In this document: positions 4,049-27,173 of the stretch, piece by piece
How the letters are laid out: each line of letters begins with the position of its first letter
Numbering within the stretch: the stretch's first letter is position 1
Assembly (NCBI GenBank): GCA_036867785.1
Contig: CP145419.1
Span: 1,178,001 to 1,206,894, forward strand
Source: Plasmodiophora brassicae
Lineage: Eukaryota
Direction of reading: 5' to 3'
Length of the DNA stretch: 28,894 bases
Program-made: the position numbers and the translations under genes
The notes under the pieces: generated by a model
What the model was told of the DNA's origin: nothing
The model's input: only the letters and a program-made list of their open reading frames with translations
Database searches by the model: none

Positions 4049-6008
4049 ATGCAGCGCTTGGGCAGGTGGCGGCCGACGCGACAGCCGGCCAGGCGTCTAC
4101 TGTCAACAGAAACGATAGTAGTGAACAGGACGGTAGGGGGTGTGTCGCCTGACGAGGGGTTCGACCGCGCTGATGATCGCCGGGCGTAGACGTACAATCA
4201 ACCGGGGCGTGGGTGGCGCCCCACCGTCGGCATCTGCCTCGACGGTACATCCGTCGAGTATATCGTCGAAGCGATCCGGGCAGGCGCCATGCCCAACCTG
4301 CAGAACTGGACGAGCGGGCACTGGGAGGCGATCCCGTCGGCAGCGCCCGGGTGCTCCCGAGGCCTCGCTGCAGGTACCTGCCAGAGTGCACACTCGCTCT
4401 AGACTATATTCGTTTGACCATGGATCCGCGGTACACAGCGGTCATGCCGACGTTCACCAACCCGAACAACGTCTCCATTGCGACCGGGACCGTAAGCCTG
4501 CGGTCGCTGTCTTCGTTCCCTCGACTGATGGCCCGCAGACACCCAGGGTGCATGGCATATCCGGCAACTATTTCTACGACGCGGAACGCGACGAGGACGT
4601 CCACATGAACGCCGCGTCGTACATCCGGGCGCCCACCATCTTCTCCGAGATGGAGCGGCGCGGCGTCAAGGTCGTCGTAGGCGTATGCGCCGCCGCCGTT
4701 CCTTACTAACGCTGCTCCTTCTACAGGTCATTGTGACAACAGCGAAGCAGAAACTGTACGACCTTCTTGCTGCCAGTTCGTTCATGCGCATCTGCGTGCC
4801 CTTCTGCAACGTGCCCTTAGCGCAGTCGTGCAGACCTGGACCTGTCGCAGAGCATTGTAGTGGCGTCGGAGACGGCCGAGGATCAGACGACGACGGCGCA
4901 CCTGGCGAGGCATGGCATTGAGGGTGGCATTCGCGCCCTGTTGCCGTCGTACGCGACGACGCCCGGCATCTACGACCCGCGGATCAGCTATCACTCCCTC
5001 GATACGGCCCTGGCTCTGGTAACGCGATCGACGGCCACGCTCGATATGGGACTCACAGGACGTGGCAGTTGCAACGCCATATGGAACAGTCGCCGATGAC
5101 ACCTGCCATGGTCTACTGTTCAACGACCGACTTTGTCCAGCATCAGTGAGTATAGTGTCGTCCTGCGCCCGCTCGCGTCACCTGAGATCGTCCTCTATAG
5201 GTTCGTTCCTGGGTCTCCCGAAGCGAACGAGTTCTGCGCGGCCGTCGACGAGAGGCTCGGGCGGTTCGACAGCGAGTGCTCGGCGATGATTGGCATCACG
5301 GCCGACCATGGCATGAACGACAAGGTCAAGTACGACGGTACACCCAACATCTGCTACCTGCGACCCGTTGTCGATCGCGTTGGCGTCAAGTGCCGCATCG
5401 TGCTGCCCATCACGGACGCCTACGTTCGACATCATGGTGGGCTCGGCTCCTTCGCGATGCTCCATTTCGACAACAAGGTGTGCCAATGTGCGCCGCCCAA
5501 CTGTGCTCGTCTGACTGTTCCCGCAGCGAGACGCACGCGAGGCGCATGGCGAGCTATGCAGGATGCGAGGCATGTACACGATTGTAAACAAGGCAGCCGC
5601 CGCTGATGAAATGAGCCTCCCGAAGGATCGTCTAGGTCGCGTATCCTCTTCGGTACTATAACAGGAACGTGTCGCTGATGGGCGTCCATCGATAGGAGAC
5701 ATCGTCCTCGTTGCCAAGCGCGATTTCGTGTTTGCCAGCAGCCCCGAGGAGCATGACCTGTCCCAGCTGGACCCGGGCGTCAAGCTGAGATCGCATGGCG
5801 GCTTTTCAGAGATGACCGTCCCGATGTATTTCAATTTCAAGCTCAACGACGCCTATGCGAAGCGACTGCACTCAGGTGGGATTCATTTCCAGTGCACATG
5901 ATCACGATGCCTTGGCTGACACTGGTCCCCCCGCCAGGTGAGATGCGCAACTTCCACCTGTTCGAAGCGCTCTGCAACGGCGCCGGCCAGCAAACAATGC
6001 ACGATTAG
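4049..6008 (+). CDS. phnA: phosphonoacetate hydrolase (alkaline phosphatase superfamily), multi-exon, with predicted mitochondrial presequence
   Basis: Spliced translation gives [112 protein letters not shown] and RNFHLF. Exon 1 is 4049-4132, intron 1 4133-4189, TAG at 6006-6008. Confidence 0.92.
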
Positions 6009-6049
6009 ATGGGGGAAGACTGCATGACTGCGTGTATTGCGTGCCCAGA

Positions 6050-6574
6050 CTAGATCTCGTCGAACACGAAGTTGCATTCCTCTTCCTCGTCGGATCCCAT
6101 GACGGCCGTCTCGTTGATTCGTGCTGAGCGGAACATATGTCAGAGGGGGGATGTCTCCTCGAGCACAACCACATATCCGCACCATTGTCAGGCAGTTCGC
6201 CCATGGCTTTCAGGGCGCGTGCCTCATCGGCCGAGTACTTTAGAATGCAATCGGCCTTCTCGTCCTGGTAGTCTCGCAGGCCCAGCAGGACAATGTCGCC
6301 CTGGGTGATCCAGACGCGCTTGCGCATCTTACCACGAATGTGGCAGAGGCGCGTCTTCCCATCGAAACAGACGGCTTCCAATCGGCCTGGGCCCCACGTG
6401 TGAGCATCGCACGATTCGAACGGATTCCTCCCGCACGAGCATACCGTTGCCCAACATTTTGACGACCTGCGCGTACTCCTGGCCGTCCTCCTTGACAGTC
6501 AGCTCCCGCTTCTCATCGCCTTCGTTCTTACCGCGACGACGGTTCTTACCGCCCTTGCCCTTGTTCTTCGGCAT
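6050..6574 (-). CDS. eIF1A: eukaryotic translation initiation factor 1A (3 exons: 6574-6445, 6386-6183, 6123-6050)
   Basis: [17 protein letters not shown]...[51 protein letters not shown], with acidic tail ...FVFDEI*. GT-AG introns at 6387-6444 and 6124-6182. Confidence 0.97.
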
Positions 6575-6871
6575 CGCTTACGTAACCGCTAATTGCCTGT
6601 GACCTGAGCCTACCTTGACTCATCCGGGGTGAATCAACATACGATATCCGGAGACCGAAGCGAGTCATTACAGATGCAGTCGGGACAATGAGGACCACGG
6701 GAGCAGGCCGGGGGGCCGGCGCGGCGACAACGACGCCGGGATGGATCGGGGAGATGCCGGTTGTGGTCTTGGGCGTTTACGTCGCACCAAGTTGGGCAAG
6801 ACTGCGTGGCGGAGTCCGTGGCGGAGTCAGACCCAACCGACTCTCCAGGCGAGGAGCGTCCTGGGACGACC
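6575..6871. promoter_or_regulatory. ~300-bp divergent intergenic region, putative bidirectional promoter
   Basis: Head-to-head start codons of eIF1A (6574) and SPB1 (6872). No specific motif identified. Confidence 0.45.
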
Positions 6872-9568
6872 ATGGTTCGGAAAACGAAAACCGCCAAGAC
6901 CCGGTTGGATAAGTACTACCGGTTAGCGAAGGAGCAGGGCTTTCGTTCGCGTGCCGCGTTCAAGCTCATCCAGCTGAACCGCAAGTATGATTTCCTATCG
7001 TCGGCGCGGGCGCTGATCGACCTGTGTGCGGCCCCGGGTGGGTGGCTTCAGGTCGCCGCGAAGTACATGCCCGTGTCCAGCCTGATTGTCGGTGTCGACC
7101 TGGATCCCATCCGTTCGATCCCGAACGTTCGCGCATTCCAAGAGGATATCACGACCGCTTCGTGTCGGACGGCCATTAAAGGCGCGATGCAGGGCTGGAA
7201 GGCCGACGTTGTGCTGAACGATGGATCGCCGAACGTCGGCGGCGCCTGGACGAAAGATGCTTATGGCCAAGCGGAACTGTCGCTCATGGCATTGAAACTT
7301 GCCATTGAATTCCTGCGCCCAGGCGGCCTGTTCATCACCAAAGTCTTCCGATCGCAGGACTCCAACAGTCTGCTGTGGGTCGCCCGTCAACTGTTCGACC
7401 GGGTCGACGCGACGAAACCCAGCGCCTCGCGTTCGTCGCCGATTGTTCGTTCTGCTGCGTTCTTCGCTGAGCGTCTGCTGTTGCCCAGGTGGAACGTCGG
7501 CGGAAATCTACTTTGTGTGTCAAGGGTACAAGGCTCCCGACAAGGTGGACCCCCGTCTGCTGGACCCGTCGCATGTCTTCAAGGCGATCGAGTCCGGCCC
7601 GGCGCCCGTCAACGTGCTGCGGGACGCCCCGATGAAACAGAAGCGCCACCGATCCGGCTACGATGACGGTGTCATGGTCCTGCACAAGTCGATGACGATG
7701 CAGGAGTTCCTGGATGCGCCCACGCCCGCTGAAGCGCTGGCGATGTACAACGCGATCGTCCTAGACGATATCGCCCGCTCGCATCCGGCGACGACCGACG
7801 ACATTCGCGCCGCGTGTGCTGACCTGAAGGTGCTCGGACGCAGGGATTTCAAGCAACTCCTGCAATGGAGGCGCACGCTGCGGGCGCATCGCGAGCAGGT
7901 CGCCAAGCAGGCTGCGGCCGACGCTGAGTCTGACGGCAACGACGACGACGGCCAGGTTCGTTATACAACGGTTGCAGCGGCACCCGGGCCGTTCTAGAAC
8001 TTATGGTCTGCTGTAGGCAGAAGACGAGCCTGATGAGGCGCGGGAAGCCCGCGAGACCGACGAGCTGGAAGAGGCGCGTAAGCGGATGGAAGCCAGGCTG
8101 AAGCGGGCGAAGCGCAAGCGCAAAGAGCAGAAGACGAAGGCGCGCCTGCGTCAGCTGGGCATGGTCACTGTCGAAGACAACGAAGCCGCCAACGACGAGG
8201 AAGGGCTGTTCGCCCTGAACGCCATCGAATCCGGTGCCGGTCTGCGAACCGTCGTCGCCGACGACGCTCAAGCTGTTGACGTCGACGAAGACGACAATGC
8301 TGATGAGAGTGATGATGATGATGATGATAGCGTTGGCGGCGTGGAAATCCTGAGTGACAGCGAAGCGGAGGCGGCCCTGGAGAGGGAGCTCGACGAGCAG
8401 TACGCGGCGTACAAGGCGGCGTGTGGCACGTCGAAGAAGCGCCGCGTTGATGTCGGCCTCGGCGACGACACGGGAGCATACATTGTCGACAACGACGCCG
8501 ACCGTCAATCTGCCGGGAGCGATGATGATGATGACGAGGACAAGCAGGACCCGAACCCGCTCAACATCGACCTGGACAACCTGGACGATCCCGCCGAACT
8601 GTCGTCCCGTCGCAAGGCGCAACGCTGGTTCAGTCGGGACCTGTTCGCGTCCTGTACGGCCGATGACGCCAACGGCGAAGTCGTTGCCGACGACGGCAAC
8701 GTTGGCGCCCGGGAGGACGCCGACGACGACGTCAAGGCTGACCCTGCGCCGATGGACGACGGCGCCAGTCATCGCCCGCTAGTGCTGCGCCCGCGGAAAG
8801 GTACACTTGCCGGTGAATGTTCGTTGCACGATTACTGAACACGGAACAGCAGGCGCAGGCACAGGGGACGGCGGCGCCGGGTTCGAGGAGGTCCCTGTTG
8901 CCGAGTCCGACGATGAATGGCCGTCGGATTCGGACGAGGAGGCCGAGATGCTCGCCGTCGGCAAGATGTTGCTGCGGAAGAAGAGCCGGCGCGACCTCGA
9001 GGACGCGTCCTACAACCGGTACGCCTGGCAGGACGATCCGGGCCTGCCCTCCTGGTTCGTCGACGATCAGCGCGCACACAATCGGCCGATCCTGCCCGTC
9101 TCCAAGGGCGACGTCGACCTGATGAAGGCGCGTCTGGCCGCGATCAACGCGCGGCCGATCAAGAAGATCGCAGAGGCGCGCGCCAGGAAGAAGCTGACCA
9201 CGGCGCGACGCTGGGAGAAGGTACGCTGCTGTTTAGCGTCTGCGTTGTCGGCTGACGCTCGTGCCTAGGTGAAATCGGCGGCCGAGAGCATTGCCGGGAA
9301 CAGCGATTTGCCGGACAAGGAGAAGATGAGGCGCCTGGATTCGCTGTACAAGACCAAGGGCAAGAAGGCGAAGGGCGGCGCGAAGCCCCAGAAGCAGTAC
9401 GTTGTCGCGCGGAAGAGCGGTGCCGTCAGGCCCAACAAGGCGACGGGGTCGAAGCGCCCCGGGCGCATCAAGATGGTCGACAAGCGCCTGAAGGCGGATA
9501 AGCGGGGTCGGGATGCGTCGCAGCGCCAACGCAAGAAGACCACGACCAAGAAGCACAAAAGCAAGTAA
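6872..9568 (+). CDS. SPB1: pre-rRNA 2'-O-ribose methyltransferase SPB1/FTSJ3
   Basis: [52 protein letters not shown] and KPSASR|GTSAEIY; then an acidic middle, [29 protein letters not shown] and [10 protein letters not shown]. Introns about 7431-7488, 7956-8016, 8801-8849, 9221-9268. Confidence 0.96.
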
Positions 9569-9827
9569 ACGCGCCTGTCGCCTGTTTACTCTTGGACTCG
9601 TCAGGATGTCGATCATCGGCAACGATTGCTGGTGCCATTGTGCAACGTGACGCCAGGGACGCCCTGCTGGTGTTGCGTCGGGACCTGCTCGAAATCAGCT
9701 GTCCGGTACGGTACCACGAACGAATCGTCAACGAGGCGAAATGCCTGTCACAGGGGCCCAGTGACTGGGGCGGATCGGAAACGGCGTCTCCGACGTATAT
9801 AGTTGAGGTCGGAAGCCACCTCGCAAG

Positions 9828-12626
9828 ATGGCCGCCCAGCAGCGCGATGCCTGCTCGTCCGGCGACCTGATCTCGCGCGTCCAGGCGCAGGCGTCGTCGA
9901 TCGCGTCGTACTTCTCGGATGTCGAGACGCTGCTGCGGACGATCGCGCAGGCCATGGTCGGCCAGTACGACAACGACCTCCAGGGCGTCCAACAGTACGC
10001 GCGAGTGCCGCCCAGCGCCGACCGCGACCCGTACCGCGCCATTGAATTCGCCAGCATGCTGACCAGCGACCCTGCCCTGGTTCTGAACTACTCGTGCGTC
10101 TACGACCTCGTGCACCCGACGGTACCTTGGCCGCCGAAGACCAGCATCTCGCTGGCGTTCGCCAGGCAGCACAACTGCACGTACGATACGTCCTACCTGC
10201 TGACCGACATCTGTGCCGCCAAGTACCCGCAGTGCCCGAACGCCACCAAGGCGCTCGCCAGCCCGATCCGGGTCCTCGACTGGGCCAGAAACGCGTCCAA
10301 TCCCTGGTGCCCAATCTACTGCCTCAACCCGGCCCGATTCAACAACTCGTACCTGGCCTTCACCGAGGACCTGTCCCGGCCCATGGAGATCATGGGCCCA
10401 CAAGTGTAACGTCCCCCCGATATCGTCGATCGTACGTCCAACCGCGAATCCCACGACCTTGTAGGTCCACGTACTACTACCCGCAAATCGATCTCCTGTA
10501 CTGGGCTTCGACCACGTCCCAGAACCGCGCCGGGTACGTGCAACGTGTCTGGATCGTTGTCGCGACGAGTGCAACCGTGGTGACTCGTTGCGCAGCATCA
10601 CCTTCTATCCCACGAACTGGTACGACGAACTGTCGCCAAGGCATCGCGACATGAACGCGATCGTCCCGCAGCTGTTCTACGCGCAGCGCCCGATGTGGGA
10701 GACGACGCGAGCCGCATTCGAGGTCGGTCCAGCATCGACGGGGCTGTTGCACATTGCTGACTTGTTGGGTCAGGATCCGTACCCGGACGGGTACGGCAAC
10801 GGCATGATGACGACGATGCACTACCCGGTGTACTACCACAGCGAGTACATCGGCGACCTGATGGTCGACCTGCGCCTCACCTCCTTGGGGACGATGACGT
10901 CGGCGTTCTCGCCGAACCGCGACAGTTTCTCCTTCATCACGTCGTACCCGGATCTGGGCATCCTGGCGGCAAACGCCACCGTCTACGACCGGTTCTTCTG
11001 CCCGAGCACGACGAACTGTGACACGGACGGTCACTATGATTTCACCAATGCCATCACGTCGTCGCTCTATGACAGCCCACACAACGTGTCGACCATCACG
11101 GGGAGCCTGGCCACGAAGTCGCCCGCGTTCGACACCGTCCTGTTCGATTCGCGCGCGTTCCACATGTACTCGACGCCGGTGCCCATCCCGAACACCGACT
11201 GGGTCCTGTCGACGCTGGTCCCCGTCGACCAGATCGACCGCGCCGCCATCTGGTCCCTGACGCTATCGCCGCGCTCCATCGTCGTCGACCGCACGTCGCC
11301 CACGAACGTCACGATCGTGGCGATGCTGGAGAACATCGGCCTGCAGCCGGCGCCCTGGCGATCCCACATCAGCGAGACGGCCGTCGGCTCTGTGGCACCC
11401 ACGTATGGTGTGCTCCAATCTGGACAATCGACGCCGTTAACCGTCACCATCACACCGGAGGTGGCGTTCCGGTCGGGGACGTCGCTGGTTCAAGTGTAAG
11501 ACCGACATTACGAAATAGTAGATGTGTCGTCGTCGCCTGACGCTCGTCTTGGGCGTAGGTACGCGTCCGGGCACAACGACGGCGGGTGCTTCCCGAGCTT
11601 GGTGGAGGCGGTCGCGATCGAATACGAGCCGCTGTACATCGCGTTCGCGATCCCGGCGTACCTGACCGGGATCGTGATCGCCAGCTGTGTGGCCGTCGTT
11701 GCCATGCTGGCTGGGACGGCGCTGCTCATCGTTCGCCATCGTCAGTCGACGCGAATCAAAGCGTTTTCGCCGCCGCTGCTGTTGCTGTCGTTGGCCGGCG
11801 CCGTTCTGCTGTCGTCCGCGTCGCTGACCTTTGCGTTCCTGCCTGCGTCCGACCTGTTGTGCCAGTGCCGGTGGTGGATGACGGCGCTAGGCTTTATCGT
11901 GACGTTCGCGCCCCTGTTCATCAAGACGTACCGGATCAACCGCATATTCAACAGCTTGAGCACCCATGTCATCGCGATCCCGAACGCGCTCCTGTACAAG
12001 GGCGTGTCCGTTCTAACCGGTATCGTCATCGTGATCCTGATGGTCGAGACGCTCGACCCGACGTGGAAGTCGGTTCGGGCGGTCGTGCCCGTCCCGTCTA
12101 TCGCGTCGTCGCTACCGGGCTACACGACCACATTGCAGATCTGCACGTCGAATTCGTACGCCGTCGCCGCCATGATCGGGTTCCTGGCTCTCCTGACTAT
12201 CTGGGGAGCCGTCACATCGTGGAAGGTCCGGCACACACCCGGTACGTAATTCGACACATTGCACAGCAGCGACTGTGGCGCGCCAATCGAGCTGACCGTT
12301 GATTGACCCTGCCAGATGCCTTTAACGAAGCGTTCACCCTTTCGGTGTCCATCGTGACCGTGTTGGTTTACGCCGCGATCATGATTCCAGTGCAGATCCT
12401 GAACGACAACAACCCGTTGGTTCTGGTGGTGATCCGCGGCCTCGGCGTCAACGTCGGCATCCTGTTATCGATGGGCGCCTTGTTCTACCCGAAACTGGAA
12501 CTGATCTACCACGGCCGACAGAACGACAAGATCCAGACGGCAACATCAGGGCACGGGCACAAGTCCGGATTCAGCAGGGCAACCGTTGTGGGAGCCGCTG
12601 GCGATTCCGCTGGCGCCCAGAAGTAA
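9828..12626 (+). CDS. class C-type (7tm_3) GPCR with extracellular dCache-like sensor and Ig-like spacer; start codon uncertain
   Basis: Cache-like DPYPDGYGNGMMTTMHYPVY..IGDLMVDLRL and TDWVLSTLVP. Ig/MSP-like LENIG..P.W..VAPTYGVLQSGQS..LTVTI. Class C motifs IKAFSP, LCQCRWW..GF..LFIKTYRINRIFN, KVRHTP|DAFNE and LFYPKL. Introns 10406-10464, 10534-10595, 11496-11558, 12242-12315. Confidence 0.88.
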
Positions 12627-13183
12627 CAAATTCCCGATATGTTCGCTAGCGTTCATTCTTGATACTGTATTTATGCATTAGGATATTCCCCACCTTCTCC
12701 GACTGATAAATAGACAATACGGCGCGGCCGTTGCCGTTCTTGGTATAAACGAGGGCTGGCGGGTCCATGACGTACAAGGTAGGTCAGCTGCCGTACGTAA
12801 TTGTCCATAACCCGGGAAATCAACAAATCGACCTGTCGCGCCGCGCCTGCTTGAGTGCCAACGTTCTTGTACCCGGTGTCGTAAACTGACGACGCTTCCG
12901 GCGATGTGCACGACGTCGTGCGACCCAGAGGAATCTTTTGACGGATTGGGCACCCGTGCGCGCAGCGCTCTGCCCGCGCCGCCTTGTTCGCTTAGACGAT
13001 GGCGGGTGGCTCGACGACCGTAGGTCTCGCGCTCTTGCCAGGCAGCTGCCTCCGTTTGTCGGTATCCTGATCGTTACACTGGCCAGCGACCGTCGTGCTG
13101 GAGTTCAGTGTCGTTCAACTCGTCGTTGTCGACCGATGACCACATCAAGCAACGTGATCTGCATCCGTTCGCGTGCTAGGCGG

Positions 13184-13596
13184 TGTGCGCTCCCTGGATC
13201 CGTGCCAGGCCTCGTGCTGCACCTGTTGGCGTCATGTCGTCGTCCTCCTGCTCATCATGAGGCGCCTTGTTAAAGAACTTTCTGGCCAACGCCAAGGCTG
13301 CCGCTGGCCTCAGCAGCAAGGCACCAGGGGCAGAACATCGCTTCAAACGAGCGCCGACCGGCATGATCAGCGGAGACGGGCCGAAATTCCGTTTCTTGGA
13401 CATTTTGTGGTCCCGAATGAAAGAGATTCCGCACAACCCATTTGGGATTGCGGTGATCATGCCGGTCGGCGCTCGTTTAAAGCGATGTTCTGCCCCTGGT
13501 TCCTTGCCGCCGATGCCAGCGGCAGCCTTGGCGTTGGCCAGAAAGTCCTTAATCACTGCAGGTTCAAAGCACACGTCGTTGATCTGACAGTACATG
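13184..13596. repeat. 413-bp dispersed direct repeat, copy 1; contains a long inverted repeat (arms 13273-13369 / 13454-13550)
   Basis: Matches 26761-27173 with 2 substitutions seen. The internal 97-nt arms differ at 6 positions and flank an 84-nt loop. Confidence 0.95.
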
Positions 13597-18779: not shown

Positions 18780-19880
18780 GTCTGGACAGAACCATGACGT
18801 CCAGGGCGACACCGGGGATGCCGTTCGTGTCGTCATACCCCGCGTCTCACTCATTCGCAGCCGGCGAACGCCTCCGTATGCAGGTCATGGCGGCCGACTT
18901 CAGCCTTGACCAGGCAATGTCTTCGTATGACGACGCCACGTAGGATCCACCTGGTCGACCATATCGTCGATGACGGACTGCATGGATGGTGCTCCCCGTC
19001 GAGCAGATTGACCGCGCCGCCATCTGGTCCCTGATGCTATCGCATCGCTCCATCGTCGTCGATCGCACGTCGCCCACGAACGTACCGATCGTGGCGATGC
19101 TGGAGAACATCGGCCTGCAGCCGGCGCCCTGGCGATCCCACATCAGCGAGACGGCCGCTCGTTCTGTGGCACCCACGTATGGTTTGCTCCAATCTGGACA
19201 ATCGGCGCCTTTGATCATCACCATCCCACCGGAGGCGGCGTACCTGTCGGCGACGTCGCTGGTTCAAGTGTACAGTATGTACCGCTTTGCGAAACATTTG
19301 ACGTCGCCTGACGCACGTCTTGAGCGCAGGTACGCGTCCGGGCATAACGACGGCGCGGCGGGTGCTTCCCGAGCTTGGTGGAGAAGGTCGCGATCGAATA
19401 CGATCGAGCCGAGCGGTGCGCCGCCATAGGCCGGCCATGTGCTAGCAGACATCATGCTGATCGCTGTCAGCGTGCTCGTAAGGGCAGCGGCATCGTCCCA
19501 CGCGCTAACGCTCCAGCCAGCAGATGGGCGTAGGAACGCCTGCACTGTCCTTGTGTTTTACATCGAACCCTCCTGCCTGCTGCGAAACATCTTGCAGATG
19601 CGGGTCTGGTCGTACTGGACGAACGCCCAACCTGACGCATTCGCATCGGTGCCAATGCTCGTTACCGACGTCGACAATGTAGAGGCGACCAGCGCATAAC
19701 TGTCTGGCCATTTAGTCACAATGACGTCGGACAGGCAAGCGTGAAGCAGAACCCGGCGGCAGTCGCCCCATCGCCTACCGTCGACCATTGCTCTGTTCAC
19801 CTTCATCGCTCTCGTCTGCATCATCGTGTTTGACCTTGTTCCCAAATTGCATTTCGTCGTGGCAACCGCAGGATTGTTAC
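18780..19880 (+). pseudogene. decayed paralog of the dCache-class C GPCR
   Basis: 18990-19400 is highly similar to 11218-11630, including the intron position. Diverged flanks keep FVSSYP..ANAS (cf. FITSYP..ANAT), SYWTNAQPDAF (cf. SWKVRHTPDAF) and LVPKL (cf. FYPKL). Stops, frameshifts and loss of TM1-3. Confidence 0.85.
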
Positions 19881-22929: not shown

Positions 22930-23860
22930 GTCGCCAGGACGACCGGCAGCGGCGGTCTACGCTCGTCTTTGCGTCGTATACATGTATTGAACGGTTCAGG
23001 TTGTGCCGATGTTCCGGAAGCAATGACGACGGATCTTCGACGGCAGGCGGGCGATTGCATGTCGACCGGCGGCATCGGGCGCTGGGCGCTGCCGCCGTGC
23101 TGGATGACCTGCAGGACAGACAGGCGACGCTTGCCAGACAGACGGGAACCTCGGCGATGCCCTCGGTTGGTCGGCCCGCCATCGAGGCATGGTGCAGGTC
23201 AGAGTCGCGCGGGAATATCGCAGCGATCGGCGAATGGCCAGGGCGCCGCCTCAGTTGACGAGCAGGTCGGCGCGCCGCTGCTGCCCTGCAGGTGCTCACG
23301 CTCGACAGACGATGGCAGGCGGCGGCAGTCGTATCCTGTTCCAGCACGTTAGACGGAGGGGCGTCGGTGAATCAGACGACGGCACGTACCTATGCTGGAG
23401 GTGAAGCGTGTTCACCTAGATGTGTCGTGCACGTCGGCAGGCGTCCGGCAGGACGCGTTGTGGTCGGCATGAGCCCCTTGGCCCGTGCTGCTGGTAGGCG
23501 ACGACGTCGGCGCGCTAGGTCATCGAAAGCACCGAGTGTGCGATGCCGAATAATACGACATGTCGGGCGCCCGTATACGACGAGGCAGTGGGCGGGGTTG
23601 GCGACCGACAAAGTGGTCGGGTCGTCGCCAGCGTCGACGGCGTCCAGCACGAAGTCGGCGGCCGCTTCACGTTGAGCGGCGCCGACCTTGACGTCGACGT
23701 AGACCGCCCTCCATCCGGCATGGCACACTGCGACATCATGCAGGAGGCGTCGGAGGTCGGCGCATGCAATATCGCGTCGCGTGCACCGCACCACCCCCCG
23801 GTCAGGCGACCGCCCGCCGCGCGGCATCTGGCCTGCGACGATGGTGAGTTCTCCGTTGCC
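22930..23860 (-). pseudogene. decayed Skp1/POZ-like + ankyrin gene relic, copy B
   Basis: RSPDRGVV..CADLRRLLHDV..VDVKVGAAQREAAADFV..TTLSVANPAHCLVVYG, then RVLPDA/ADVHDTS/NTLHL. Homologous to copy A and to the inverted 21950-22710 region. Confidence 0.5.
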
Positions 23861-23919
23861 TGACGGCGGGGTGCCTGTGTAGTGCCTGAATGTGTGTGTC
23901 TGTGTATATTGATGACGGA

Positions 23920-26404
23920 TCAACTGATCTGCGCAGGGCCTTCAATGCGATCAACAACGACCTGGTAGTCGGTGTCGGCAACGACGATGGGTGTTTCGTG
24001 GAAGTACGCCAAGGAATTGTCCCCCACGCGAAGATCAGGGGAGACCTTCGCGAAATGCTTCTCCTCAATCGATGATGCCAGCGAACTGTAACCCTTCGGG
24101 GCGACGCGATCGCCAGGGTTGCCGGAGGACAACAGCAGGCCCAGGCTGCCGTCCGGCTTGACGCCACACACCAGCATGCCCGCGCTCTGGATACCACGGA
24201 AGTTGCTCGCCTTCAGGTTCGCCAGAACGACGGCCATCTTGTTCAGCAGTTCGTTGGCAGAATAGTGAGCTCGTAATCCCGAAACGATCTGTCGCGTCTC
24301 AGAACCAATATCGACTTGCAGCACAAATAGGTGCTCGGCCGTCTCATGCCTACAGACGACCGCGATGAGTACAGCAACATTGAGAGACACGACTCATAGC
24401 GCACTCTGCGACATGGCGGATGAGACCAGTGACGAGATTGAGTGGGAATATCTTCGCAAACAGCACTTGGGGTTCTCCGATGACATGACCCGAATGAATG
24501 GAATGTCGGAAGTACGGTCCATCACCCCTCAACGACAGGACCGATCGGTCGAAGTTCAGCTGCTTGCAAATTCTGTTACCCGGGTAAGAGATACGGCAAC
24601 AGGGTGCAACCATTGAACAGACCTCTCAACAAGCTCGGGCATGTATGGTTCGAGCATTGTAGCAAGAAGGACAACCGCATTCATAGAGACGTTAATAACT
24701 GAACCGGCGCGCGCTTTGTCTGTAGACTTGTGAGTAAATGCAAACAGGATCACCAAAATTGCGGGTCTGCATACCATCTTTGATAAGGCGCCAAGGAGGA
24801 TTGTCTTGCAAATATTTGTTGCATCGGTGCGAGGCCTGCATAGCTCGCTTTAGCCCGTCTTTTATCTCGACCTAGCGAGGAATTAGAATTTGACGACTCT
24901 TGCCAGCACCAGCCATACCTTCTCCAGGAGAGCAACGAATACCTTTGCGTGCTCTTCCATATCCTTGACGAACGTCTCGTCGTCGGGGGTCAACGTGCAC
25001 TCAGGAACAACGGAATTATAGCTGTTCTTGATAAAGACAAGACCGCGGTTCACGAAGTCGCCTAGATTATTCACTAGGTCATCATTGTTCTTCTGCAGAA
25101 AATCGTCCCAAGAGAACACGGCCTCGTCCGTTTCGGGACGGTTGACGAGAAGGCAGTATCGCCAAACCGACGGCGAGACGCCGGACAGCTGCACACTGTC
25201 ACCGAAAACACCGACTCCCATCGACTTCGAGAACTTGCCGCTCTCGTACTGAAGGTACTCCGTTATGTTGATGTGGTGAAGCATAGTGTACCCTTGATCG
25301 GCCCCGAGAAGAACGGATGGCCAGATGACAGTGTGGAAAGGAATGTTGTCCTTCCCCACGAACTGGACCAGTTCCACTTGTTTCGGATTCCTCCACCAGC
25401 GCTCCCAATCCGGGGTGTACGCAGCAGTAATGGACATGTAGCCAATTGGAGCCTATTCATCAGCAAACACATCAGGACCACGATGCATCCGACAAATACA
25501 CGACTTAGACTGACATCAAACCAGTTGCAAAACATTTTGTCACGGAGCCCATCTTTTGGAACAGGGACTCCCCATTTCAGATCGCGCGTGAGGCATCTGG
25601 ACTTCAAACCAGTTGCGATCCACGCTTTCGTCACTTGCATGGCGTTTTGCGACCAGAGCCCCTTCTCCGCGAGCTGATCGACCCACTTTTCCAGCCGCTC
25701 CCTCATCAACGGAAGATCAAAGAACAGACGATTCGTCTTGCGAACAACTGGCGTCGATTTGTCACTGGCGCAGTACGGGTCTTTAAGGAGAGTCGCCGTC
25801 ATCAGATGCCTACAGTTATCGCACTGGTCACCATGCGCGCCTACGTGACCACAGTCAGGGCAAGTTCCTACACAGCACCGTGAGTATTCCAATCACCAAT
25901 GGCCAGGCGACAAGCGAGCGTACCTCGAACGTAGCGATCAGCCAGGATCATATCGCATTTTGTGCAGAACAGCTGTTCGACTGTGTCCTCGTGAACAATG
26001 CCGTTAGCTTCGCATTCCTTGAAGATTCGCTGGACGATCTCAGTCTGCAGAGGTGTCGACGTCCGTCCGAAAATATCGAACGAGATGCCGAACCATTTAT
26101 AGACCTGGGCATGAACGGCGTGGTACTTGTCGCAAACCGCCCTAGGTGTCAGGTCCTCCTGGATGGCCTTCTGCACCGTTGCGGTCCCGTACTCATCCGT
26201 CCCGCACACGTAGATGACGTGATGCCCGCGGAGCCGGCAGAACCGCGCGTACGCATCGGCGCTCAGCACGCCGCCAATGATGTTGCCGAGATGCGGCACG
26301 TTGTTGACGTACGGGAGCGCCGACGTGATCAGGATGTTGCGCGCACCGTCCGTGGGCAGCACCGGCTCCCGCTGCGCCTCGCCGACACGAGCAGACGGGG
26401 CCAT
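23920..26404 (-). CDS. MARS: cytosolic-type methionyl-tRNA synthetase with C-terminal EMAPII/Trbp111-like tRNA-binding domain (divergent)
   Basis: [21 protein letters not shown] (HIGH), GTDEYGT, Zn knuckle [35 protein letters not shown] and LEPYMP, then [26 protein letters not shown]. The ORF is maintained across short GT-AG introns. TGA at 23920-23922. Confidence 0.93.
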
Positions 26405-26760: not shown

Positions 26761-27173
26761 TGTGCGCTCCCTGGATCCGTGCCAGGCCTCGTGCTGCACC
26801 TGTTGGCGTCATGTCGTCGTCCTCCTGCTCATCATGAGGCGCCTTGTTAAAGAACTTTCTGGCCAACGCCAAGGCTGCCGCTGGCCTCAGCAGCAAGGCA
26901 CAAGGGGCAGAACATCGCTTCAAACGAGCGCCGACCGGCATGATCAGCGGAGACGGGCCGAAATTCCGTTTCTTGGACAGTTTGTGGTCCCGAATGAAAG
27001 AGATTCCGCACAACCCATTTGGGATTGCGGTGATCATGCCGGTCGGCGCTCGTTTAAAGCGATGTTCTGCCCCTGGTTCCTTGCCGCCGATGCCAGCGGC
27101 AGCCTTGGCGTTGGCCAGAAAGTCCTTAATCACTGCAGGTTCAAAGCACACGTCGTTGATCTGACAGTACATG
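26761..27173. repeat. 413-bp dispersed direct repeat, copy 2 (hairpin arms 26850-26946 / 27031-27127)
   Basis: Near-identical to 13184-13596. Confidence 0.95.

Follow-up and report, generated by a model that had tools for sequence, protein, structure and literature searches.

Structure of the receptor gene and its transcript

The stretch of DNA analyzed here (the window) comprises 28,894 nucleotides of Plasmodiophora brassicae (assembly GCA_036867785.1, contig CP145419.1, positions 1,178,001 to 1,206,894) and contains, at positions 9828–12626 of its forward strand, a gene of six exons that is predicted to encode a class C G protein-coupled receptor (GPCR). In this protein a diverged sensor domain of the dCache_1 type and an immunoglobulin (Ig)-like stalk precede the seven-transmembrane (7TM) domain, an arrangement that an earlier note, made from the letters of the sequence alone, had proposed. 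The gene starts with an ATG at 9828 and ends with a TAA stop codon at 12624–12626, the same limits as in that note, and sits in a GC-rich region (~60%). All parts of the receptor gene described below are on the forward strand.

The evidence for the transcript consists of contigs from four public runs, belonging to four studies, that were placed on 9300–12800; an initial model of five exons, based on open frames and GT..AG sites, was revised by these contigs. In three of the runs the whole gene is present in a single contig that lacks introns, covering 9814–12800 in run X1, 9813–12713 in run X13, and 9809–12654 in run X5. The label of the runs as RNA is a guess, and it is the loss of five canonical introns that indicates that the contigs represent complementary DNA (cDNA). 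Because these single contigs span all the exons, the Cache, Ig, and 7TM exons share one spliced transcript, which disposes of the possibility, raised in the earlier note, that the Cache and 7TM exons lie on separate transcripts. The ends of the same contigs (9814, 9813, and 9809 in X1, X13, and X5, respectively) place the 5′ end of the transcript and give a very short 5′ untranslated region (UTR) at 9809–9827, with an in-frame TGA at 9804–9806, upstream of the ATG. No read depth was found at 9651–9767 in any of the four runs. A joint at 9373>11221, which depends on a match of 25–27 nt with three mismatches in an abundant unrelated contig, was rejected as spurious.

The joined exons specify a protein of 829 residues. 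Exon 1 (9828–10405), over which the paralogues are collinear, contains the start codon, the long N-terminal Cache helix, and the Cys-rich insert with CPIYCLNPARFNNS; its joint to exon 2 (10405>10465), across the 59-nt intron 1 (10406–10464), is found in all four runs. Exon 2 (10465–10533) encodes the first β-strands of the membrane-distal Cache module (YYYPQIDLLYWAS...) and aligns to strands 217–232 of the paralogue model described below. It is followed by intron 2 (10534–10595, 62 nt) and exon 3 (10596–10722), which was placed by contigs and by paralogue alignment and contains the helical part of the distal module (NWYDE..., FYAQRPMWE). Intron 3 (10723–10773, 51 nt) preserves the reading frame and is free of stop codons, and its read-through would give 846 residues; its removal is recorded in all four runs (joint 10720>10772, cut +2). 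The motifs QRPMW and DPYPD, which had been taken to belong to one continuous segment, are both present but are separated by this intron. Exon 4 (10774–11495), as defined by alignments, contains the distal strands from DPY to VDLRL, the whole membrane-proximal module (FCPSTTNC, VPVDQIDRAAIW), along with the greater part of the Ig-like domain (LENIG...). Intron 4 (11496–11558, 63 nt) is bridged by the joint 11495>11559 in three of the four runs, there being no bridging contig in run X8. Exon 5 (11559–12241) supplies the last Ig strand (CFPSLVEAVAIEY) and the transmembrane (TM) helices TM1–TM5, with KTYRI ending TM3, and exon 6 (12316–12626) supplies FNE, TM6, TM7, PKL, the C-terminal tail of ~45 residues, and the stop codon; the two are separated by intron 5 (12242–12315, 74 nt). 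All five introns have GT..AG boundaries, and introns 1, 2, and 5 are absent from the contigs of all four runs.

Run X13 carries a diverged allele with 44 listed substitutions over ~2.6 kb (9813–12713); a public protein fragment, P0001 (96% amino acid identity), seems to represent this allele. In the remaining three runs the receptor gene is identical to the window or differs from it at two places.

Seven-transmembrane domain, Cache ectodomain, and stalk

The 7TM domain comprises residues 528–784 (11644–12488, including intron 5), as located by Pfam, profile search, hydropathy, and motifs. The Pfam family 7tm_3 (PF00003) matches exon 5 (11560–12240) at 90.3 bits, compared with a cutoff of 33.5 (E 2e-25, profile positions 8–191), and exon 6 at E 0.008 (profile positions 193–251); the two matches are contiguous and jointly span the complete domain. 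Hydropathy gives six peaks above 2.0 together with a weaker TM3 at residues 598–622. Class C receptors have characteristic motifs in the form of a Lys in TM3, FNE before TM6, and PK after TM7. The three 7tm_3 motifs that had been pointed out earlier were all located: KTYRI at residue 621 (11923–11937) at the end of TM3, FNE at residue 729 (12321–12329) ahead of TM6, and PKL at residue 785 (12489–12497) past TM7. Cys600 and Cys602 are at the top of TM3, and Cys694 is in extracellular loop 2. Only ~45 residues follow TM7, and they include neither an RGS domain nor a long docking region.

A 7tm_3-type profile, free of bacterial and RGS sequences, was limited to the exons of the window and three relatives of the 7tm_3 type. 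Among solved receptors it scores best with GABA-B2 (E 1.4e-16), followed by GABA-B1 (2e-10), mGluR2 (3.4e-8), GPR156 (7.6e-8), GPR179 (4.4e-7), and GPR158 (4e-6). As judged from these profile scores, the 7TM bundle is generically class C, nearest to the GABA-B type, and not specific to GPR158. No exon translation has a Pfam match at E ≤ 1 to ANF_receptor, the family of the Venus flytrap, which most class C receptors have although it is not universal among them; together with the fold found in the paralogue model, this agrees with the proposal that a dCache domain and an Ig-like stalk have replaced the Venus flytrap.

Because the Cache domain scores below the Pfam threshold it is hidden from routine annotation, and a Pfam search with the first ~520 residues gave no family above threshold. 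Sub-threshold matches to dCache_1 (17.4–23.7 bits) fall in the same region of the profile in four of the seven members scanned, namely two with 7tm_3, four with RGS, and P0014. A phmmer search of 1.84 billion representatives with the translation of exons 3 and 4 gave 13 proteins at E ≤ 1e-3; the query (10597–11493) was read through intron 3 and carries 17 extra residues, and the matches fall outside those residues. The proteins, designated here by P numbers, comprise three near-identical fragments (P0001–P0003), two proteins with 7tm_3 (P0004 and P0011), four with a C-terminal RGS domain (P0005, P0006, P0007, and P0013), and three prokaryote-type dCache_1 sensors (P0008, P0009, and P0012; E 1e-4 to 7.5e-4), two of which are at or above the Pfam cutoff. 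The remaining one, P0010, is a repetitive protein of 693 residues that matches at E 1.4e-4 in five short stretches and has no Cache, 7TM, or RGS domain; it was regarded as a composition artifact and excluded from the alignments.

The window protein and the eukaryotic members align collinearly and have in common a C close to the N terminus; N-x-[ST]-C; CP-x-YCLNP-x-R-x-x-NS; PY-x-D...M-x-T...P-x-Y...G...D-x-x-L; FCP...C; VP...ID-x-AA[VI]W; L-x-N-x-G; and CFP immediately before TM1. When a profile made only from eukaryotic sequences was aligned by hhalign with three bacterial dCache_1 sensor kinases, the match (98.8%, E 7.6e-17, 219 columns) started at the initial strands of the distal module and continued through the whole of the proximal module. 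The 7tm_3-type profile also matches the solved ligand-binding domain of Mlp24 (E 3.6e-6) and two other solved Cache sensors. These profile matches show that the ectodomain is homologous to bacterial dCache_1 domains, beyond mere resemblance. The Cache-like segment (QRPMW...VDLRL) that had been noticed by eye is thus real by the family profile, as it is by the paralogue model. A scan of metagenomes with a tightened alignment gave 80 pattern matches, none of which was confirmed.

The fold was examined in P0004, the closest paralogue, whose gene model is truncated; it aligns collinearly with the window protein at ~33% overall identity. An AlphaFold2 model of P0004, made with an alignment of 14 rows that included the window exons, has a mean predicted local distance difference test score (pLDDT) of 68.4 and a predicted template modeling score (pTM) of 0.55. 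With Foldseek it had matches to 124 PDB chains (E ≤ 1e-3); of these, 36 were listed, almost all of them dCache-type sensors (Mlp24, PctA/B/C, CtaA, Tlp3, PscC, and TlpQ, among others). A structure search independent of Foldseek gave the same top list of dCache domains. In superpositions by VIA-align the best match was to PscC (Z 16.2, root mean square deviation (rmsd) 3.5 Å, 241 residues), with PctB (Z 15.9, 230/234 residues), PctA (Z 15.9, 224/230 residues), and alpha2delta (3jbr_F, Z 16.0) also among the best. The dCache superpositions involve model residues ~22–426 with rmsd values of 3.0–3.5 Å. The earlier note had made its proposal depend on a Cache fold of the ectodomain, and the paralogue model does superpose on solved dCache domains, with Z values of 15–16. 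The double-Cache fold, a stalk helix with two stacked PAS-like modules, is present in the model and was transferred to the window protein through the collinear alignment. On this basis the diverged dCache_1-like ectodomain is assigned to residues 7–417 (9846–11250, including introns), the boundaries corresponding to residues 22–426 of the paralogue model. In the ESM Atlas, all listed matches of the P0004 ectodomain are Cache families, at 0.89, which is a lead only. A single-sequence AlphaFold model of exons 3 and 4 had a pLDDT of 29 and was unusable.

Bacterial dCache domains have ~230–260 residues, as compared with ~405 in the corresponding segment of the model, and the excess is mainly attributable to a segment of ~150 residues after the long first helix. 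This is the Cys-rich insert (residues 46–195; 9963–10471), which is located between the stalk helix and the first β-strand of the distal module. The insert had been recognized correctly but had been described as a separate module between the Cache and Ig-like domains; it lies inside the Cache domain. It holds six of the seven N-terminal Cys residues and five N-glycosylation sequons, and it has neither a Pfam family at E ≤ 1 nor an aligned counterpart in the bacterial relatives. A second pair of Cys residues, in FCPSTTNC, is within the membrane-proximal Cache module.

The stalk (residues 418–522; 11251–11628, including intron 4) corresponds to residues 424–530 of the paralogue model, which match Ig-like sandwiches with Z values of 9.5–10.6 and rmsd values of 1.9–2.9 Å over 88–101 residues. 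The matches include the MG domains of complement C3/C4 and alpha2-macroglobulin, an FnIII-like domain of RbmA, Ig domains of PECAM, and Ig-like domains of glycosidases. Sub-threshold Pfam matches on the stalk are to HYDIN_VesB_CFA65-like_Ig (18.6 bits compared with a cutoff of 25.5, E 0.0022) and to MSP (E 0.06), and the ESM Atlas gave no usable match for the Ig part. As modeled, the stalk is an Ig-like β-sandwich, and the structures that it matches are sandwiches of the generic Ig-like, MG, and FnIII kinds; of the Ig/MSP-like assignment made previously, the Ig-like part stands and the MSP-like part is a possibility.

The protein begins MAAQQRDAC..., with the conserved first Cys preceded by eight residues. 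Eight N-x-S/T sequons and 10 Cys residues are located before TM1, which has acidic residues on its N-terminal side and basic residues (RHRQSTRIK) on its C-terminal side. The Cys residues, the sequons, and the charge pattern of TM1 argue for a Cache domain that faces the outside, and this is the topology predicted for the ectodomain. Signal peptides are present in the paralogue P0016 and in the relatives P0005, P0006, P0013, and P0023. The paralogue P0014/P0024 likewise begins with MAA ~8 residues before the Cys and has no signal peptide, making two of the three paralogues of this kind. The N terminus of the window protein resembles the mature end of a protein whose signal peptide has been lost.

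Relatives of the receptor and neighboring genes

In a cluster look-up, at least two named P. brassicae paralogues were found: PBRA_002250 (P0015/P0016; 838–856 residues), with 32.8% identity to the window protein, and PBRA_005651 (P0014/P0024; 884–908 residues), with 27.9% identity. Both are annotated only as "GPCR family 3 profile domain-containing protein." The four RGS-linked relatives (P0005, P0006, P0007, and P0013; 1072–1498 residues) have the Cache-plus-Ig ectodomain, 6–9 hydrophobic segments, and a C-terminal RGS domain (Pfam E 5e-16 to 2e-11), and three of them have a signal peptide. 7TM-RGS proteins of the AtRGS1 type, in which a 7TM region is followed by RGS, are comparable to these four relatives. 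Unlike the AtRGS1 type, the relatives add the Cache-plus-Ig ectodomain, and the window protein has no RGS domain.

The window also contains a partial copy of the receptor gene at 18990–19403 on the forward strand, with 87% nucleotide identity to 11216–11627 over 423 aligned positions with 20 gaps. The copy reaches from the last part of the Cache domain through the Ig-like part and intron 4 into the beginning of exon 5, and its frame is broken past the intron; it looks like a pseudogene fragment, and the public open reading frame calls P0002 and P0003 lie on it. A repeat of 413 nt is present at 13184–13596 and 26761–27173, the two copies being 99.5% identical. It is palindromic inside (13273–13550 is 78% identical to its own reverse complement) and has no Pfam match, and it may be a small mobile element.

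Three other genes, all with housekeeping roles, were identified in the window. Upstream of the receptor gene on the same strand is a gene for an Spb1/FtsJ3-type rRNA methyltransferase (6692–9568), with matches to FtsJ (E 2.9e-46), DUF3381, and Spb1_C. In three runs its contigs stop at 9560–9565, just short of the TAA at 9566–9568, the next letter after which is A; from the position of these ends beside the stop codon, the 3′ UTR seems to be of near zero length. On the reverse strand are genes for eIF1A (5902–6498; Pfam E 3.6e-18) and for a methionyl-tRNA synthetase with a tRNA_bind domain (23390–25452; E 3.5e-42 and 3.1e-21). The long open frames between 13 and 23 kb have no Pfam match.

Mode of action, alternatives, and origin

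With a probability of roughly two-thirds, we regard the window protein as a ligand-activated class C receptor, the Cache pocket of which senses a small molecule and in which the Ig-like stalk replaces the Cys-rich domain that serves as the relay in other class C receptors. A small molecule would bind in the membrane-distal Cache pocket, the proximal module and the rigid Ig-like stalk would relay the resulting change to the 7TM domain, and the 7TM domain would then activate a heterotrimeric G protein. The binding of a ligand and its class, the relay through the stalk, operation as a dimer, and coupling to a G protein are all predicted features. The link to G proteins is counted in favor of such a receptor in that the identical type of ectodomain precedes a multi-TM region and RGS in four relatives.

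The nature of the ligand can be considered from the pocket found in dCache_1 domains that bind amino acids, in which Y121, R126, and W128 touch the ligand carboxylate and Y144 and D173 touch the amino group (PMC8915833); a Tyr at the position of Y144 and D173 are also common to amine sensors (PMC10589655). In the window protein QRPMW is at 10684–10698 and VDLRL is at 10864–10878. A distance of 29 residues, the same as in PctA, separates the DPY Tyr from the VDLRL Asp; the two align with the PY.D Tyr and the Asp of Mlp24, in an alignment that is weak for the single sequence (E 0.17) and significant for the profile. The Tyr and Asp of the distal module are kept in the window protein and in six of the seven aligned relatives, with P0006 as the exception. 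Since these are the residues that contact an amino group, a ligand that carries one is a reasonable guess.

Several observations weigh against the receptor mechanism outlined above. At the sequence level, the dCache_1 (PF02743) gathering score of 45 bits is not reached by any member, and the window protein itself has no dCache_1 match, only one to MCP-like_PDC_1 at E 0.22. The evidence for the fold comes from a middling model of a paralogue with a 30% identical ectodomain and not from the protein of the window. In the pocket, the carboxylate half of the motif (Y121-x4-R126-x-W128, 13–17 residues before Y144) is out of register and is not conserved in the family: the Y, R, and W of the window protein are at –17, –14, and –11 from the Tyr, compared with –23, –18, and –16 expected, as counted in sequence register and not from a superposition of pockets. 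The suggestion that the amino acid motif is partly retained therefore holds for the Tyr/Asp half and fails for the Y..R.W half, and because only the former is kept the domain was not classed as dCache_1AA. The TM helix of dCache_1 proteins has been described as "always located C terminally" (PMC8915833). In the window protein the Cache domain is followed by an Ig-like domain of ~105 residues instead of a TM helix, so that the relay of the bacterial proteins could operate only in an altered form. Finally, the transcripts called for in the earlier note supplied the start of the N-terminal region but no signal peptide: the protein has neither a signal peptide nor an N-terminal hydrophobic segment, and 9569–9827 contains no signal-peptide exon, its sole ATG-led frames being MSIIGNDCWCHCAT and MPVTGAQ. 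The contigs start 14–19 nt before the ATG, so that a domain of ~520 residues would have to cross the membrane without a signal peptide.

Alternatively, the ectodomain might be a module for binding proteins or matrix, in adhesion or as a scaffold, as in GPR179-pikachurin or alpha2delta, with the Cys-rich insert and the Ig-like domain making the contacts. About 150 of the ~410 Cache residues belong to a conserved Cys-rich insert of unclassified fold, the carboxylate half of the amino acid motif is missing, alpha2delta is among the best structural matches, and the Cache domain of GPR179 binds pikachurin (PMC11437087). However, the closest sequence relatives outside the family are all prokaryote-type sensor kinases, and the Tyr and Asp for an amino group have been kept in the window protein and most of its aligned relatives, and we consider a protein-binding role unlikely.

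The absence of a signal peptide, and of an upstream exon that could provide one, might also mean that insertion of this copy does not place the Cache domain outside; the copy would then be a paralogue that is decaying or functions poorly, or else a receptor whose Cache domain is cytosolic. Five related proteins do have signal peptides (P0016, P0005, P0006, P0013, and P0023), and the partial, broken copy is found 7 kb from the gene. Against this, the six exons give an uninterrupted reading frame of 829 codons, splicing of the gene was recorded in four runs, each from a different study, and the similar start of P0014/P0024 makes the missing signal peptide a shared feature and not damage to a single copy. 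The way in which charges are distributed around TM1 favors an N terminus on the outside, and the content of Cys residues and sequons fits a luminal domain; mis-targeting is thus improbable. Equally improbable is a ligand-controlled RGS platform that acts by GTPase-activating protein (GAP) control and does not activate a G protein, since, although four relatives fuse the ectodomain to a multi-TM region with RGS and the Cache-bearing receptors GPR158 (mGlyR) and GPR179 work through RGS7 (PMC11437087, PMC12716839), the tail past TM7 of the window protein has only ~45 residues and neither RGS nor a long docking region, its 7TM domain scores far better with GABA-B2 than with GPR158, and KTYRI, FNE, and PKL have been retained.

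The preferred reading, that of a ligand-activated receptor, invites comparison with several known systems. As in GPR158 and GPR179, a Cache-type sensor replaces the Venus flytrap before a class C 7TM domain and a rigid linker domain precedes TM1. Those receptors have a single Cache module of six strands and three helices and an EGF-like Cys-rich linker (PMC11437087), whereas the window protein has a double Cache domain of ~410 residues with a Cys-rich insert, an Ig-like linker, and a short tail that offers no RGS7 platform. By Cache type, linker, tail, and 7TM affinity it is outside the GPR158/179 subfamily, and the closer match of its 7TM domain to GABA-B2 suggests an independent fusion. The solved relatives with the best 7TM scores are the GABA-B receptors, with which the window protein shares the TM3 Lys (KTYRI), FNE, and PK. 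GABA-B receptors sense through Venus flytraps, form heterodimers, and have long coiled-coil tails; the window protein has neither the Venus flytrap nor such a tail.

The ectodomain shares homology, fold, and the PY.D Tyr and Asp with bacterial dCache_1 domains (PctA/B/C, Mlp24/37, PscC, CtaA, Tlp3, and the sensors P0008, P0009, and P0012). Unlike these, it has a Cys-rich insert after the first helix and an extra proximal Cys pair, is followed by an Ig-like domain with a 7TM output, and has no N-terminal TM helix or signal peptide; unlike those that bind amino acids, it has not kept Y121, R126, and W128. With alpha2delta and CACHD1 it has in common that it is a eukaryotic extracellular dCache_1 domain with a large insertion, and a family profile that includes the bacterial sequences matches CACHD1 at E 4e-5. 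The window protein differs from both in that it has no VWA domain, its insert comes earlier, and its output is that of a GPCR.

According to a 2022 study, every eukaryotic dCache_1 protein found there contains a VWA domain that separates the two halves of the ligand motif (PMC8915833). In a 2016 paper, eukaryotic Cache domains are given only for alpha2delta, histidine kinases, and one adenylate cyclase (PMC4822843), and in a 2025 survey the non-metazoan GPCRs of the lineages sampled have no Cache domain (PMC12716839). No description of a dCache-7tm_3 or Cache-7TM-RGS protein in protists was found in the literature searched, the supplementary lists of PMC8915833 and PMC3971589 being outside the search. 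The receptor of the window apparently represents a second, protist joining of a double-Cache sensor to a class C 7TM domain, with a different linker and independent of the animals. In a bolder and doubtful extension, a portable Cache-plus-Ig cassette of bacterial ancestry would have been wired, independently of animals, both to a class C 7TM domain, which activates, and to a 7TM-RGS protein, which deactivates; in a clubroot-type parasite it would sense compounds of the host that carry an amino group and would guide zoospores or trigger germination, and its route to the surface would be unusual in having no signal peptide. That the receptor senses the host or its root exudates is speculation.

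Cache-bearing class C receptors, in the form of GPR158 (mGlyR) and GPR179, have so far been a specialty of animals. Cache domains can usually be expressed alone for ligand screens, and the ectodomain may therefore offer a route to the cues used by an unculturable, obligate root parasite and also to an understanding of how a single type of sensor can serve a GPCR output as well as an RGS output.

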